From the UHGV virus genome UHGV-0371891: a DNA stretch of 6,611 nt. One strand, given 5' to 3'. The notes under the pieces are model-generated. The model worked only from the letters and a program-made list of their open reading frames with translations, did no database searches and was not told where the DNA came from. Positions 2,314 through 6,611 of this stretch are shown here, in pieces. Position numbers and translations under genes: made by a program. The DNA comes from a virus. Position 1 is the stretch's first letter. Every line of letters starts with the position of its first letter.

Positions 2314-3711
2314 ATGGCAAATATTCTTTGTGAAAAACCAAAATATATTTTGAATCCTGCTTTTAAGGATGCACTTTTGCAAACTGGAAAATATGTTTAC
2401 AACGGAGATGCAACTTTTGTACCAGAAATGCGACTTGCTGCATGGCGTTGGAACTTTCCGTATGCCCTGTTTACGCCGAAAAATATTGACTTTCAAAACA
2501 CTATCTCTTGGGAAGATAGTTTTTATGCCATTGACCGCGATGGTGATGTTGTACCTATGTTTTTGGCAATTCCGTGTCGCAAATGTGCTCTTTGTCGAAA
2601 GAGAAATGCTCGTGAATGGATGTTTCGCGCAGTCGCTGAATCGCAATCATCCCGTTCTGTTCCCTATTTTATCACTCTTACTTACAATCCCATACACCGT
2701 CCTACAGATGGTGTAGACAAAAAACATGTACAAGATTTTCTTAAACGTTTGCGTCAAATTCTTGTTAGAGACCATGGTTATGATGAGAAAATTCGGTATT
2801 TTGCCGCTGCTGAGTATGGCAGTCATACGAAGTTGCCTCATTATCATCTTATTTTGTGGAATATGCCTATTCACATGTCTTCTATGGATGTGTATCAGGT
2901 TGTTCATCAGGCTTGGTCTGTTCGAGAACGAGTTTATAACAAACTTACTCATCGCTTTGATTGGAATTATATAGGTGAATTTGGATTTGTCTATTGCAAA
3001 CCTTGCACCCAAGGTGGTATCCAGTATTGTATGAAATACATGCGTAAAGAGAGTGATATTCCTAAAGGTTGTAAACCAACTTTTTACCTGTCATCCCGCC
3101 GTGGCGGCGGTCTTGGTTATAAATGGTGTCTCGACCACATTATGTGGTTCTATCAGAATCCTGACGTTTTGACTATTGAAATTGTTGACAAATTTACAGG
3201 TGAGCGTTTTACGTCGTATATCCCTGCATATTTTCGTCGGAAACTTTATCCAACCCCATCTCTACTTGTTCGCAAAGAAATACGTGATACTATTCAGTTG
3301 GTAGACTATTTTTTATCACTACGTGCGTGTCTTTGGCAGATACATCTTCACATGCCTGATAAAGAAGTTAATGTTACTCGTAAACATCTTCATGAGAAGT
3401 TCCCTTTTTACGATTTTGATACTTGTGTGCAACGTTTCCCCCGCTTTATTTTTAGTAATGCGAAGCATTTTTATGCTACTTATGAGGAAGATTCTCTCAT
3501 TGTTATGGAACATATCCTCGAGCCTCTTCTGGCTATGCTTGAAACTTACGAATTCGATCTTAAGTATTACAAAATGATGACTGCGGCCAAGCGTGAACAT
3601 CACGAGTTTGTGAGTGAACACATGTTAACGCAACCTGAGGTTGATATAACGTATGTTAAATATAAGACAGATAACGAGAATATTCTTGCTATTTACAAAG
3701 AAACTTTATAA
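2314..3711 (+). CDS. VP4: Rolling-circle replication initiator protein (Microviridae VP4 / gene A-like, HUH endonuclease superfamily)
   Basis: Zinc-finger-like CRKCALCRK (nt 2575-2601). RCR motif 1 FITLTY (2668-2685). Motif 2 HYHLILW (2839-2859). Motif 3 with paired tyrosines YCMKYMRK (about 3025-3048), comparable to YVAKYVNK of phiX174 A protein. 465 aa. Confidence 0.9.
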   Translation: MANILCEKPKYILNPAFKDALLQTGKYVYNGDATFVPEMRLAAWRWNFPYALFTPKNIDFQNTISWEDSFYAIDRDGDVVPMFLAIPCRKCALCRKRNAREWMFRAVAESQSSRSVPYFITLTYNPIHRPTDGVDKKHVQDFLKRLRQILVRDHGYDEKIRYFAAAEYGSHTKLPHYHLILWNMPIHMSSMDVYQVVHQAWSVRERVYNKLTHRFDWNYIGEFGFVYCKPCTQGGIQYCMKYMRKESDIPKGCKPTFYLSSRRGGGLGYKWCLDHIMWFYQNPDVLTIEIVDKFTGERFTSYIPAYFRRKLYPTPSLLVRKEIRDTIQLVDYFLSLRACLWQIHLHMPDKEVNVTRKHLHEKFPFYDFDTCVQRFPRFIFSNAKHFYATYEEDSLIVMEHILEPLLAMLETYEFDLKYYKMMTAAKREHHEFVSEHMLTQPEVDITYVKYKTDNENILAIYKETL

Positions 3712-3713
3712 CT

Positions 3714-3893
3714 ATGCCGTACATTTATGCTAAGATATATCCAAAGGTGATGCTCGCTTATGAAAAGGATAAGATTTCTTATCGTACCTTTGAGACTCTT
3801 GATGAGTATATTTTGTTTGTAAACTTTGAATTACCTGGACTTATGCGGGATGACTTCCTCATAGTCCTATCTAATAATTTTTGTTTCACTTAA
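3714..3893 (+). CDS. Hypothetical 59-aa protein (MPYIYAKIYPKVMLAYEKDKISYRTFETLDEYILFVNFELPGLMRDDFLIVLSNNFCFT). It is not in the supplied ORF track because it is under the length cut-off.
   Basis: The ATG lies 2 nt after the VP4 stop. Translated by hand, the ORF fills the gap between VP4 and the next ORF almost exactly, with its stop TAA at 3891-3893. Tight packing is typical of microvirus small genes. Confidence 0.35.
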   Translation: MPYIYAKIYPKVMLAYEKDKISYRTFETLDEYILFVNFELPGLMRDDFLIVLSNNFCFT

Positions 3894-3905
3894 AATTTTT
3901 ACATT

Positions 3906-4130
3906 ATGGTAAAATTAAACGTAGATTGCTGTTCAGTTGCAGCACAAGACAATGAACCTCGTGTTACCTTTGCAACCCGCAAATTCCTGTCTACTCAGGA
4001 AGAGATACCAGTTGTTGTTATAGTTCGTGAACACATTCCTCTATCTGCTGCTATGCAGTTGATTGTTACAGACCGTCAGTTACCTGATGGCATGTATGAA
4101 CAATATTTAATTGAACCGGAAAATGACTAA
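3906..4130 (+). CDS. Hypothetical small acidic protein (74 aa)
   Basis: The start context ttATGGtAAAAtt resembles the VP1/VP4 starts. The protein has a net negative charge, with about 12 D/E against about 6 K/R. Its end overlaps the next ORF. Confidence 0.4.
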   Translation: MVKLNVDCCSVAAQDNEPRVTFATRKFLSTQEEIPVVVIVREHIPLSAAMQLIVTDRQLPDGMYEQYLIEPEND

Positions 4131-4323
4131 ACAGCAGATTTATAAAATTATAGAGCACGCGACTACTTTCATTCTCGGAGTAGCCGCGGCTATTCTTTTG
4201 GATAGTTGCACTGCATCTATGTCCCTGTTTTGGAAAAACCAAAATTCCTCTCAAGGCACGCAACAGTCTACTACTACGCGTGTGGATAGTTTAAAAACTC
4301 CTGATATTAATGTAAATCTTTAA
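4111..4323 (+). CDS. Small membrane-anchored or lipoprotein-like protein (66-70 aa). It is a candidate lysis or envelope-targeting protein.
   Basis: Basic n-region (MNRKMTKQQIYK), hydrophobic stretch FILGVAAAILL, then DSC and a polar Ser/Thr/Gln-rich tail. The alternative start ATG at 4123 overlaps the stop of the upstream ORF (aATGacTAA). The ORF ends 3 nt before the VP1 ATG. Confidence 0.45.
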   Translation: MNRKMTKQQIYKIIEHATTFILGVAAAILLDSCTASMSLFWKNQNSSQGTQQSTTTRVDSLKTPDINVNL

Positions 4324-4325
4324 TT

Positions 4326-6596
4326 ATGGCAAATATATTTCGTAAAAAAGACGCTTACATCGATCGTGTTAATCGTTCGACGTTTGATTTGTCGTTTGTA
4401 AACAACCTTACGATGAAATTTGGTGCTATCACTCCCGTGTGTTTACTTCCGGCGTCATTTGGCGATTCTTTTCAGATAAACGCTCGTTTTAACCTGCAGC
4501 TGCTTCCGACCGTGTTTCCGATACAGACTCAACTGTATGTGCGATTACACTTTGTTTATGTTCGTACTCGTACCCTTTGGGAAGACTGGATGGAATTCTT
4601 TGGTGGTGATGAAACTGTTACACCTCCCTGGCTAGATGTTCTTGCTGATGGTTCTACTCCTGAGCGTAAAAAACAGTTTAATATCCCTGATGATTTGCAA
4701 ACAGGTTCTCTTGCTGATTATCTTGGTGTGCCTACAACTATTACCGGAACTTATGGTGGTTCTGTTATTGCTGCACGTTCTGTTGATTTGTTCACTTTTA
4801 AGGATAATGTGCCTGCTTTGAAAGCTCCTTTGGTTGGTTCTCCGGTTGTAGCCGGTGTTTCTTTTACTACTTTGGATACCATTTTTGAGTCTTCTGCTAA
4901 GTTTAATGAAGTTTTTGTATCAAATTTTGCAAATAAAGGCTCTTATGGTTATGCTGCACCTCGTTGTATAGGCATTCCTTTTAATGTTCATTATGATACG
5001 CCTACACAAAATGTTACTTTACAAGTCCCGTTAACTCGGTTTAGTCTTCTACGTCAAATGATTTCTGACTTTGATGATAATCCGATTGTTGGTTTTATTG
5101 TTTATGAAAACGATAATTCTCCTAAGCTTTGGTATTCTCAATTTAATATTTCTAATATAGAAGATGATACTCTCACCTTTAATATAGATTTTGGTAAACC
5201 TCTCTCTTCTTTTAAGTTGTGCATGCTTTTTGAGTTTCGTAATGAACTCTATCAGAAGGATTACATGTACTCTTTGTATGAGGCTGGTTCTGCAACAACT
5301 ATTCGTGCAGGTCTTACACAAGAGTTCGTTTCTCAACTTTATAGTTCTCCTATTTCTGTTGTTTATGCGTCTTCTGAGTGGACAAAACCCGTTGCAGCCA
5401 ATTGTCCTTTTTATGTTGCTGCAGCTAATCAGCTTCCTCCTATTCCTTTATCTGCCTTGCCGTTTCGTGCGTATGAGGCATATTACAATGCTTTTGGTCG
5501 TGACATTCGTAATAACCCGTTTATTGTGAATGGTAAACCGGAATATAATAAGTATGTGCCATCTACAAAAGGCGGTTCTGATTCTTATAAGTATCAGTTG
5601 CGTTATGCTAACTGGGAACCTGATGCTTACACCACTGCCTTACAATCTCCACAGGCTGGTGTCGCTCCTCTTGTTGGTATTACTTCTCTTGGTGAAGCTA
5701 CCTTCCGTGATGCTACTGGAACTGAATATCATGCACAGCTTGAGACTGCTGAAGATGGTGATACTGTTACAGGTTTTCAAGTGAAATCTTCTAATGCTCC
5801 TGCTGATGTTGTCCGGAACCTTATTGGCATGGCTACTTCTGGTATTTCTATTTCTGATTTTCGGAATGTTAACTCACTTCAACGGTTCCTTGAAATTCGA
5901 ATTCGTCAATCTCCGCGTTATAAGAACCTTGTAAAGGGTCTCTTTGATGTTAATTTGGATTATGACGAGCTTATGATGCCGGAATTTCTCGGTGGTATTT
6001 CCGATACTATTCCTGTGTATAAGGTAACTCAGACTACACCTACCGAAGGTAATCCTCTTGGTAGTTTTGCTGGTCAAGGCTCCTTGCAATCCGGTATGCG
6101 CCACGTTATCCGTAAGTATTGCCCGGAAGATGGTTATATTCTCGGTGTTATGTCTGTTGTACCTGCTGCTAATTATTCGCAGTTGTTGGCGCCTCATTTT
6201 ACACGTATGAACCTTTTGGATTGGCATTTTCCGCAGTTTAACAATATAAGCTATCAGCCTATGTTGTACAAACATTTATGCCCTTATCAGGCTTATGCTG
6301 CGAATCCTCAGAATATTAACAATGTATTTGGTTATCAACGTGCATATTGGGATTTAATTTCTTCATTTGATGAAGTACACGGTGAATTTCGCGGTTCTAT
6401 GAGAAACTTTCTTATTAATCGTGTGTTCGATAAGGCTCCTGAACTCTCTAAAGATTTCCTGCTTGTTAATCCAGACCATGTTAATGATGTGTTTGCTATG
6501 ACTGCCGAAAATGGTGATAAGATTTTAGGTAGTATTGCTTTTGACATCACTAAGAAAACTACTATACCTCGTAACTCAATACCTCATATTGAATGA
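4326..6596 (+). CDS. VP1: Major capsid protein (Microviridae F / VP1 family)
   Basis: The N-terminus STFDLSFVNNLTMKFGAITPVCLLPASFGDSFQINARFNLQLLP...LYVRLHFVYVRTRTLWEDWMEFFGGD runs parallel to phiX174 F (HDLSH..G.L..I....VIAGDSFEMD..LRLSPL...FTFYVPHRHVYGEQWIKFMKDG). 756 aa, consistent with the enlarged VP1 of Bacteroidetes-associated microviruses. Confidence 0.92.
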   Translation: MANIFRKKDAYIDRVNRSTFDLSFVNNLTMKFGAITPVCLLPASFGDSFQINARFNLQLLPTVFPIQTQLYVRLHFVYVRTRTLWEDWMEFFGGDETVTPPWLDVLADGSTPERKKQFNIPDDLQTGSLADYLGVPTTITGTYGGSVIAARSVDLFTFKDNVPALKAPLVGSPVVAGVSFTTLDTIFESSAKFNEVFVSNFANKGSYGYAAPRCIGIPFNVHYDTPTQNVTLQVPLTRFSLLRQMISDFDDNPIVGFIVYENDNSPKLWYSQFNISNIEDDTLTFNIDFGKPLSSFKLCMLFEFRNELYQKDYMYSLYEAGSATTIRAGLTQEFVSQLYSSPISVVYASSEWTKPVAANCPFYVAAANQLPPIPLSALPFRAYEAYYNAFGRDIRNNPFIVNGKPEYNKYVPSTKGGSDSYKYQLRYANWEPDAYTTALQSPQAGVAPLVGITSLGEATFRDATGTEYHAQLETAEDGDTVTGFQVKSSNAPADVVRNLIGMATSGISISDFRNVNSLQRFLEIRIRQSPRYKNLVKGLFDVNLDYDELMMPEFLGGISDTIPVYKVTQTTPTEGNPLGSFAGQGSLQSGMRHVIRKYCPEDGYILGVMSVVPAANYSQLLAPHFTRMNLLDWHFPQFNNISYQPMLYKHLCPYQAYAANPQNINNVFGYQRAYWDLISSFDEVHGEFRGSMRNFLINRVFDKAPELSKDFLLVNPDHVNDVFAMTAENGDKILGSIAFDITKKTTIPRNSIPHIE

Positions 6597-6598
6597 TT

Positions 6599-6611
6599 AT
6601 GAAACAAGTTG
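6599..6611 (+). CDS. 5' start (MKQV...) of the wrap-around gene that continues at position 1
   Basis: The ATG lies 2 nt after the VP1 TGA. The reading frame joins without a stop to the frame open at the window start, if the molecule is circular. Confidence 0.4.

Follow-up and report, generated by a model that had tools for sequence, protein, structure and literature searches.

How microviruses other than the phiX174 group lyse their hosts has been open since they were found. These viruses are among the commonest phages of the human and animal gut. The only proposal is an M15 peptidase, carried by a minority of genomes, which was put forward as the microvirus endolysin (PMC3394797); this protein is annotated as an endolysin in Bacteroides tailed phages. 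Phages too small for a holin–endolysin cassette can instead rely on a single small membrane-targeted protein (phiX174 E, LysM, Sgl-PP7 and MS2 L) that sabotages the host envelope without being an enzyme (PMC10614894; PMC7693330). The known single-gene lysis proteins act through transmembrane helices on MraY or MurJ, or are soluble (A2 on MurA), and none of those found in our literature searches is a lipoprotein. E itself inhibits MraY through its N-terminal transmembrane helix. Small lipoproteins are nevertheless used at the envelope in other systems. The colicin lysis (bacteriocin release) proteins are tiny lipoproteins, with a precursor of about 45–52 residues and a mature part of about 28–33 residues rich in Ser, Thr and Gln, whose expression alone permeabilizes and quasi-lyses the Gram-negative envelope. 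The T5 Llp and phi80 Cor lipoproteins mediate superinfection exclusion, and the lambda Rz1 o-spanin is a small lipoprotein that requires both an Rz partner with a transmembrane helix and an endolysin.

We examined a small gene located just upstream of the capsid gene in the gut microvirus genome UHGV-0371891, of which a stretch of 6611 nucleotides (hereafter the window) was analysed. An earlier note, made from the sequence alone, had described at positions 4111–4323 an ORF encoding a positively charged n-region, an 11-residue hydrophobic core, a D-S-C motif and a Ser/Thr/Gln-rich tail, start–stop coupled to the upstream ORF and abutting VP1. All of this is indeed present in the sequence, and the observation holds apart from the start codon and the exact form of the junction. 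The ORF at 4111–4323 (+) encodes ...MTKQQIYKIIEHATTFILGVAAAILLDSCTASMSLFWKNQNSSQGTQQSTTTRVDSLKTPDINVNL, with lysines in the n-region, the hydrophobic core FILGVAAAILL followed by D-S-C, and a tail rich in Ser, Thr, Gln and Asn. Its stop codon (4321–4323) lies 2 nt before the ATG (4326) of the VP1 major capsid gene (4326–6596, +; Pfam Phage_F, E = 1.7e-48; PHROG 514). However, the real start is almost certainly ATG 4123 rather than TTG 4111, which gives a gene at 4123–4323 (+, stop codon included) encoding 66 residues: 99 of the first 120 homologues are called at 66 aa, and the ATG is invariant in 27 related genomes, whereas the TTG is TCG in four of them. With this start, the gene overlaps the upstream ORF (3906–4130, +) by 8 nt (4123–4130; ATGACTAA) rather than forming a strict start–stop junction. 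This junction, ...GGAA(A/G)ATGACT, is conserved in the 27 relatives and suggests translational coupling. The upstream ORF encodes a 74-residue protein to which we could give no function; it has no hydrophobic segment, and its cluster is present in only 24 of 71 near-complete genomes, the closest relatives.

The ORF is far more than chance would give. It is kept intact and in the same place in all 27 related IMG/VR genomes that cover the region. In these relatives 50 of the 66 third codon positions vary against 11 second positions, with a mean dN of 0.041 and a mean dS of 0.49, a ratio of about 0.08, indicating strong purifying selection. In contrast, an antisense ORF at 4066–4263 is broken by stop codons in most of these relatives and was rejected as a gene. 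Homology searches returned 154 close homologues and, further out, a very large unnamed family of gut microvirus proteins (at least 3500 clusters at 90% identity). The gene is present in 64 of 71 near-complete genomes, which makes it the fourth most widespread gene of the group after VP1, Rep and VP2, and it is more conserved than any of these three: the mean identity in close relatives is 92.7%, compared with 72% for VP1, 83% for Rep and 82% for VP2. It is the second most conserved protein among the close relatives and is still recognizable where VP1 identity is only about 20%. Its position varies to some extent, since it lies between VP2 and Rep in seven genomes and after VP1 in one. From our reading of the translations, it is also the only hydrophobic product among the ORFs of the window that lie outside the large genes. 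An apparent hydrophobic N-terminus in the upstream neighbour of another clade (cluster 8) probably reflects an over-long ORF call, as the members of this cluster range from 54 to 92 aa, which suggests that only the C-terminal part is shared.

Family comparison sharpens the reading of the protein as a signal-anchor or lipoprotein with an imperfect lipobox, as proposed in the earlier note, to that of a lipoprotein. The predicted signal peptide (residues 1–28; 4123–4206, +) comprises an n-region, MTKQQIYK(IIEH), with Lys3 and Lys8, and an h-region, ATTFILGVAAAILL, with a nine-residue Kyte–Doolittle maximum of 2.87. It thus has the charged residue within the first seven positions and the h-region of about 7–22 residues expected of signal peptidase II substrates (PROSITE PS51257). 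The lipobox-like L-D-S-C (residues 26–29; 4198–4209) has Leu at −3 and Ser at −1, and Cys29 (4207–4209), which lies within the 15–35 range, is the predicted lipidated first residue of the mature protein. The Cys is invariant (73 of 73 full-length 50%-identity representatives) and position −1 is S, A or G in nearly all of them (S in 58 and A in 7). On the other hand, the Asp at −2 in the window's own clade (LLDSC) is excluded by the PROSITE pattern, which the window protein therefore fails, and we did not find such an Asp documented for Bacteroidota. Family variants include VQSC, VQAC, LEGC, VGAC and VASC, and 107 of 239 sampled members (those with Q, G, A or S at −2) fit the full pattern. In addition, distant members carry short textbook signals that cannot be lengthened, because stop codons lie just upstream: MSRGEKLWIVLAVFAMVVGA followed by Cys in L085, a member lying in a prophage, and MNKFAIILSTLLVAS followed by Cys in L188, with the canonical VGAC and VASC lipoboxes found among these distant members. 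The signal of the window protein is unusually long, but its n and h regions together (28 residues) remain within the 16–34 residues of working lipoprotein signals in Bacteroides thetaiotaomicron (PMC11554821).

The predicted mature lipopeptide is 38 residues long (CTASMSLFWKNQNSSQGTQQSTTTRVDSLKTPDINVNL; 4207–4320, +). The family motif is C-T-x-S-[LM]-S-[VI]-x-K-N-N-x-N-S-x-Q-x-T-E-Q ... V-D-S, and conservation is at least as strong after the Cys as before it. The signal for export to the surface in Bacteroidota (LES) requires acidic residues at +2 to +6, of the K-(D/E)2 or S-D-D-D-D kind (PMC5080379). These positions are T-A-S-M-S in the window protein and T-x-S-[LM]-S in the family consensus, with no acidic residue, so that the mature lipopeptide should face the periplasm. 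An AlphaFold2 model built from a 26-sequence alignment gave a single N-terminal helix (residues 3–41, with a pLDDT of 79–89 for the first 20 residues) and a disordered C-terminal half, with an overall pLDDT of 64 and a pTM of 0.30, too poor for a fold search. Sequence searches of Pfam, PHROGs, NCBIfam, PADLOC and the PDB with the window protein or the family profile gave nothing significant, and literature searches for microvirus lipoproteins, lipoboxes or lysis genes found nothing on this protein.

The distribution of the gene bears on its function. Among about 85 near-complete genomes examined, 68 carry the small gene and no M15 peptidase, 15 carry M15 and not the small gene, none has both and two (L073 and L090) have neither (Fisher p = 1.6e-6 on the first 71 genomes, uncorrected for phylogeny). 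The M15 genomes form at least 3–4 VP1 lineages nested among carriers of the small gene, which are their nearest neighbours. Moreover, in one of these genomes (L061) and in Bacteroides phage phiHBP1, M15 sits in the same Rep-to-VP1 slot. It should be noted that this mutual exclusion is correlative, counts related genomes and could reflect host range. As for the host, probably Bacteroidales, only the distant prophage L085 could be tied to one: it lies beside aspS of Paraprevotella xylaniphila. For the window's clade, a scan of a genome collection returned only two free microvirus contigs in a Chitinophaga silvisoli assembly, probably contamination or an episome, and the longer contigs carrying family members are concatemers or chimeras. 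The one cultured Bacteroides microvirus, phiHBP1, has no family member, so its published biology cannot be transferred.

We therefore propose, with a probability of about 0.45, that the gene encodes a small prolipoprotein acting as a single-gene lysis effector. In this view, the protein, made from the same strand as the structural genes, would be exported by Sec, lipidated on Cys29 and cleaved by signal peptidase II, leaving a 38-residue lipopeptide anchored in a membrane leaflet facing the periplasm. It would disable a conserved, periplasm-exposed step of envelope maintenance, so that the cell autolyses and releases virions. What our analysis establishes is that the gene is real, strongly constrained and a core gene of its microvirus group, that it carries a lipoprotein-type N-terminus with an invariant Cys, and that it is never found together with M15 in the genomes examined; the lipidation and cleavage, the periplasmic orientation, the lysis function and the existence of a target are inferred from sequence and distribution alone. 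Processing as a lipoprotein seems likely to us, whereas a role in lysis is about as likely as not. The interpretation of the earlier note, whose functional part offered either a lysis effector or superinfection exclusion, is partly supported: two observations that it had named as able to refute it, the absence of a signal segment and a disrupted ORF in relatives, were not made, since the hydrophobic segment is present and the ORF is intact in all close relatives and recognizable in distant ones, and comparative genomics favours lysis, through the strict mutual exclusion with M15, the slot that M15 can share, the core-gene status and a conservation much stronger than that of the receptor-binding capsid protein. 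The specific analogy that it drew with inhibition of MraY by E is, however, unlikely as stated, since the mature part of a lipoprotein lies in the periplasm.

Other explanations remain possible, although each appears unlikely to us. The main rival is receptor masking or superinfection exclusion of the Llp/Cor type, in which a small outer-membrane lipoprotein binds the phage receptor from the periplasmic side, blocks reinfection and stops progeny from wasting themselves on envelope debris. The general design is the same, a small phage-encoded lipoprotein without a surface-export signal; microviruses eject their DNA irreversibly on receptor contact, so protecting progeny would pay, and a member does occur in a prophage. 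Yet this reading gives no reason for the strict anticorrelation with a peptidoglycan peptidase or for its replacement by M15 in the same slot. Exclusion genes are usually accessory and patchy, whereas this one is widespread; it is far more conserved than the receptor-binding VP1, whose surface varies, so it does not co-diversify with receptor recognition; and in the prophage it sits inside the structural gene block and not at an end. Somewhat less likely still is an uncleaved bitopic membrane protein whose N-terminal helix would stay in the inner membrane as the active part, as in E, LysM or a small holin, with a nonlipidated Cys. The long predicted helix, the conservation of the signal region itself (T15, F16 and G19 are nearly invariant), a 19-residue hydropathy maximum of 1.74, which is borderline for a transmembrane helix, weak sub-threshold Pfam hits to transmembrane regions and the Asp at −2 would all fit. 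However, a plain anchor does not explain an invariant Cys immediately after the hydrophobic stretch and preceded by a small residue, which is the signal peptidase II signature, and L085 and L188 keep the mature motif with h-regions of about 10–12 residues, too short to span a bilayer.

The protein could also have another essential role, such as organizing assembly or DNA packaging at the membrane, helping nonlytic release or assisting genome entry. Its core-gene status, strong conservation and position next to VP1 resemble structural or assembly genes more than known lysis genes, but 15 related genomes do without it, all of which have gained M15, its position is not fixed, and a periplasmic lipopeptide would be on the wrong side of the membrane for cytoplasmic assembly. 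A spanin was rejected, as there is no endolysin and no partner with a transmembrane helix in the window, no C-terminal hydrophobic segment in the protein and no co-occurrence with M15. A two-component system with the upstream 74-residue ORF was also rejected, given its lack of a hydrophobic segment and its restriction to the 24 closest genomes.

If this lipoprotein is the lysis effector, a role that to our knowledge has not been described for such a protein, it names the lysis gene for thousands of genomes, adds a lipid-anchored periplasmic effector as a new mechanistic class of single-gene lysis and points to a conserved, druggable weak spot in the Bacteroidota envelope. A bolder and more doubtful possibility is that the family would be the first lipoprotein-type single-gene lysis system, in which a lipopeptide of roughly 37 residues, the fourth core gene product of the abundant gut Alpavirinae-like microviruses, kills Bacteroidales from the periplasmic side by binding one conserved envelope-biogenesis protein. 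The near-invariant C-T-x-S-[LM]-S-[VI]-x-K-N-N...V-D-S motif would then be a natural 'protein antibiotic' pharmacophore for Bacteroidota. The alternating polar and hydrophobic pattern after the Cys and the frequent C-terminal aromatic residue (176 of 331 members) even allow a strand mimic that jams a β-barrel or lipoprotein-handling machine, but only 30 of 91 representatives have such an aromatic residue, so that β-signal mimicry is kept only as a remote possibility. Even if the function turns out to be different, a fourth core gene more conserved than the capsid and replication proteins deserves a name and an experiment.

Compared with described families, the only Pfam entry that touches this one is DUF6486 (PF20096), a 31-position family of unknown function. 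Members of a sub-branch score well above its gathering threshold (22.7 bits) over their N-terminal 29 residues (P0281, 55.7 bits; P0262, 53.7; P0307, 46.0; P0284, 40.9) and are homologous to the window protein by profile search. However, the window protein and 25 other members give no DUF6486 hit at E ≤ 1, the model covers only the signal-peptide part, and no paper in the literature searched mentions it. The proposed protein would share with the single-gene lysis proteins of small phages the principle of one small membrane-targeted product, but those evolve rapidly and are often embedded in other genes, whereas this gene has its own slot with only an 8-nt overlap, has no PHROG or Pfam hit linking it to E and has a conserved motif extending well beyond the helix. 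Llp, Cor and Rz1 are likewise small phage lipoproteins acting from the periplasmic side of the envelope, without sequence similarity to this one in the PHROG, NCBIfam and PADLOC searches; Llp and Cor are accessory genes. The M15 peptidase of other gut microviruses is an unrelated enzyme of 134–147 residues acquired from bacteria or tailed phages (PMC3394797), accompanied in several genomes by tiny hydrophobic ORFs that may be holins; being strictly alternative to the small gene across the genomes examined, and able to occupy the same slot, it is the likely functional counterpart. The best functional analogy is with the colicin lysis proteins (Pfam Lysis_col, PF02402). No sequence relationship was found (the best Pfam E-value, 0.12, is below threshold and concerns one of 26 members, with no hit for the window protein), these proteins are encoded in plasmid colicin operons of enterobacteria and not in a phage, and their mechanism, through activation of the outer-membrane phospholipase A and a stable signal peptide, cannot be assumed here. 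Yet the size and design are the same, with a 66-residue precursor and a predicted polar mature lipopeptide of 38 residues.

The window is a complete circular microvirus genome of 6,611 bases with all genes on the + strand. It encodes the VP1 capsid protein at 4326-6596 (Pfam Phage_F, E=1.7e-48), a 105-aa ORF that wraps the ends (6593-6611 joined to 1-299), the VP2 pilot protein at 299-1420 (PHROG 'pilot protein for DNA ejection'), Rep/VP4 at 2314-3711 (PF23343) and three small ORFs, of 59, 74 and 66 codons, leading into VP1. The wrap-around ORF, which shows that the window is a complete circle, starts at an ATG overlapping the VP1 stop and may be the VP3-like scaffold suggested to lie downstream of VP1 (PMC3394797). 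Between VP2 and Rep there is a poorly coding spacer of about 0.9 kb (1420-2314). Bases 1759-1849 of this spacer are 90% identical to Dulem virus 258 (3705-3797), although the proteins of that virus are only 50-68% identical, and bases 1740-1870 fold as ssDNA into four hairpins with z=-4.1, making this region a candidate replication origin or regulatory element. The nearest GenBank records are unclassified gut microviruses from human and lemur faeces. No endolysin, holin or phiX174 E homologue is present in the window.

The earlier note had described, immediately upstream of the capsid gene, a small ORF with a positive n-region, a hydrophobic core, a D-S-C motif and a polar tail; this ORF and every feature listed for it are indeed present, so that the observation holds, but the start should be moved from TTG 4111 to ATG 4123. 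Gene callers give 66 aa for 99 of the first 120 homologues, and the ATG is invariant in 27 related genomes, whereas the TTG is TCG in four of them. The ATG overlaps the stop of the upstream 74-aa ORF by 8 nt (ATGACTAA) and the stop of the gene itself lies 2 nt before the VP1 ATG, both junctions being conserved. The ORF is a real gene: it is intact in all 27 IMG/VR relatives that cover the region, its variation is concentrated at third codon positions (50 of 66 variable, against 11 second positions), and the mean dN of 0.041 and mean dS of 0.49 give a ratio of about 0.08. The overlapping antisense ORF is broken by stop codons in most of these relatives.

The protein belongs to a large, unnamed family. 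A single-sequence search found 154 clusters at 76-95% identity, all from metagenomes and all without a Pfam domain or functional name (three carry only the JGI label 'hypothetical protein'). Using tblastn against GenBank phages, we found more distant copies in microviruses from lemurs, rodents, tortoises and humans, annotated 'hypothetical protein' or not at all. A profile of ten such sequences recovered 3,522 clusters at 90% identity, mostly on contigs of 6.0-6.7 kb, and an exhaustive HMM search of 1.84 billion 50%-identity representatives found 92. All share one plan of about 65 residues: M-K-..., a hydrophobic stretch, [VLAI]-x-[SAG]-C, then T-x-S-[LM]-S-[VI]-x-K-N-N-x-N-S-x-Q-x-T-E-Q ... 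V-D-S ... I-N. The only curated family that touches it is Pfam DUF6486, a 31-position model of unknown function that matches the N-terminus of one sub-branch but not the window protein. In the literature searched, no paper mentions DUF6486, or any lipoprotein or lipobox in a microvirus.

To place the gene in its genomic context, we clustered the + strand ORFs of 71 near-complete genomes (5.5-7.3 kb), sampled through a VP1 profile, GenBank hits and a scan for peptidase M15. VP1 and Rep occur in 71 genomes, VP2 in 70, the small-gene family in 64 and the wrap-around ORF in 52. The 59- and 74-aa neighbours between Rep and the small gene (3714-3893 and 3906-4130) are conserved (87% and 85%) but restricted to the 24 closest genomes, and match no family. 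The usual gene order is VP1, ORF cluster c4, VP2, Rep, small gene (49 genomes), while in seven genomes the gene lies between VP2 and Rep, and in one it lies after VP1. Among the close relatives its mean identity to the window protein is 92.7%, second only to the wrap-around ORF (94.3%) and well above Rep (83%), VP2 (82%) and VP1 (72%). The family stays recognizable at E<1e-27 in genomes whose VP1 is only about 20% identical to that of the window. The gene is thus core and unusually conserved.

Taken alone, the window protein is ambiguous between a lipoprotein and a plain membrane anchor. A Lys in the n-region, a 14-residue h-region, Cys29 within the 15-35 range, Ser at -1 and Leu at -3 favour a lipoprotein, whereas Asp at -2 violates PROSITE PS51257. 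The family settles most of this. The Cys is present in 73 of 73 full-length 50%-identity representatives, the few 'members' without it being frameshifted or truncated fragments, and position -1 is S (58) or A (7). One close homologue (P0117, on an 802-nt ENA contig) has a 5-residue deletion that removes S-C-T-A-S, including the conserved Cys, and is either a defective variant or an assembly error. Position -2 is Q in the largest clade, which fits PROSITE, and in all 107 of 239 sampled members pass the full pattern; within the clade of the window itself, sporadic LLGSC, LLGGC, LLAGC and LLSSC variants occur. Distant members keep the mature motif but have short, textbook lipoprotein signals bounded by upstream stop codons, namely MSRGEKLWIVLAVFAMVVGA followed by CTVTVQIQKDN... 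in the prophage L085 and (MIKIIYFV)MNKFAIILSTLLVAS followed by CTMSMSIFKNNN... in the distant member L188. Their h-regions of 10-12 residues are too short for a transmembrane anchor. The n+h length of 28 residues in the window protein lies within the 16-34 residues of functional Bacteroides thetaiotaomicron lipoprotein signals (PMC11554821), and residues +2 to +6 (T-A-S-M-S, T-x-S-[LM]-S in the family) lack the acidic export signal that sends Bacteroidota lipoproteins to the cell surface (PMC5080379). We therefore predict, from sequence alone, a periplasm-facing lipopeptide of 38 residues. AlphaFold2 added nothing beyond an N-terminal helix and a disordered tail.

Only the distant prophage L085 could be tied to a host. 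L085 (IMGVR_UViG_3300045988_155143, 5152-10373) is an integrated microvirus prophage (Rep, VP1, a 56-aa family member and a VP2-like gene) lying next to a pseudouridine synthase gene and aspS, and its AspRS sequence is identical to WP_415957887.1 of Paraprevotella xylaniphila. Two different microvirus contigs, one of full genome length (6,689 nt) and one of 3,476 nt, sit in the whole-genome assembly of the soil bacterium Chitinophaga silvisoli (L040 and L041; NZ_QTJV01000041.1 and NZ_QTJV01000043.1). One of them has the same length, gene coordinates and scores as the IMG/VR UViG L001, and contamination or an episome seems more likely than a true host link. Contigs longer than one genome that carry family members, a 12,353-nt ENA scaffold (L184, with two Rep and two VP1 genes) and an 8,535-nt contig (L183, GCA_002120435.1), are concatemers or chimeras of microvirus genomes and not prophages.

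The most informative result on function came from Bacteroides phage phiHBP1, the one cultured Bacteroidota microvirus (PMC13064476). This phage has no member of the family, and in the same slot (Rep, small ORF, X, VP1) it encodes a 134-aa peptidase M15, the enzyme that Roux et al. proposed as a horizontally acquired microvirus endolysin (PMC3394797) and that is annotated as endolysin in Bacteroides tailed phages. Across the 71 genomes, 64 carry the small gene only, five carry M15 only, none carries both and two carry neither (Fisher p=1.6e-6, not corrected for relatedness). Ten further near-complete M15-bearing microviruses from GenBank and IMG/VR, plus two partial contigs, all lack the small gene, and four further carriers of the small gene lack M15. 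The M15 genomes are not one clade: phiHBP1 together with the genomes L095 and L096, the genome L092, the genome L061 and the rabbit microvirus L180 each have carriers of the small gene as nearest VP1 neighbours. In L061, M15 alone fills the Rep-to-VP1 interval, the 59- and 74-aa ORFs having been lost together with the small gene when M15 was gained. Microviruses that carry M15 also carry tiny, very hydrophobic ORFs of 35-70 aa (L177 3245-3367, L179 3018-3125, L182 5815-6027 and L175 5615-5725), for example MVYILVLVLVVIKLIIILCFRKKK..., which could be holins and would give those phages a two-component lysis system. The two apparently near-complete genomes with neither gene are L073 (5,901 nt), which has only about 170 nt between Rep and VP1, and L090 (5,537 nt); they may use an embedded or otherwise different lysis gene.

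Repeated replacement of one gene by a peptidoglycan hydrolase, partly in the same slot, is what one would expect if the two do the same job. The earlier note had proposed either a lysis effector or a superinfection-exclusion protein, and three more points favour the former: the gene is core rather than accessory, it does not co-vary with the fast-evolving capsid, and in the Paraprevotella prophage it sits inside the structural gene block and not at a prophage end. From our reading of the translations, it is also the only hydrophobic product among the ORFs of the window that lie outside the large genes. However, the exclusion pattern could also reflect host range. What the comparisons show is a real, conserved gene with an invariant Cys that is not found together with M15 in the genomes examined, whereas lipidation and orientation are predicted and everything about function is correlative. 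The alternating polar and hydrophobic pattern after the Cys, and the frequent but not universal C-terminal aromatic residue, are only hints as to a possible target. The interpretation given in the note is supported in part. The protein is very probably a lipoprotein and plausibly, on about even odds, the lysis effector, which gives a probability of about 0.45 for the whole statement.

If this reading is correct, the protein would join the single-gene lysis proteins or the small lytic lipoproteins. The family to which it belongs is widespread, conserved and essentially undescribed. Its extreme conservation is unlike that of known single-gene lysis proteins, which evolve quickly (PMC7693330), and no lipoprotein lysis effector is known from a small phage. 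The closest analogy that we know of is with the colicin lysis (bacteriocin release) lipoproteins, to which there is no sequence relationship (best Pfam E-value of 0.12 in 1 of 26 members), but which have the same size and design.
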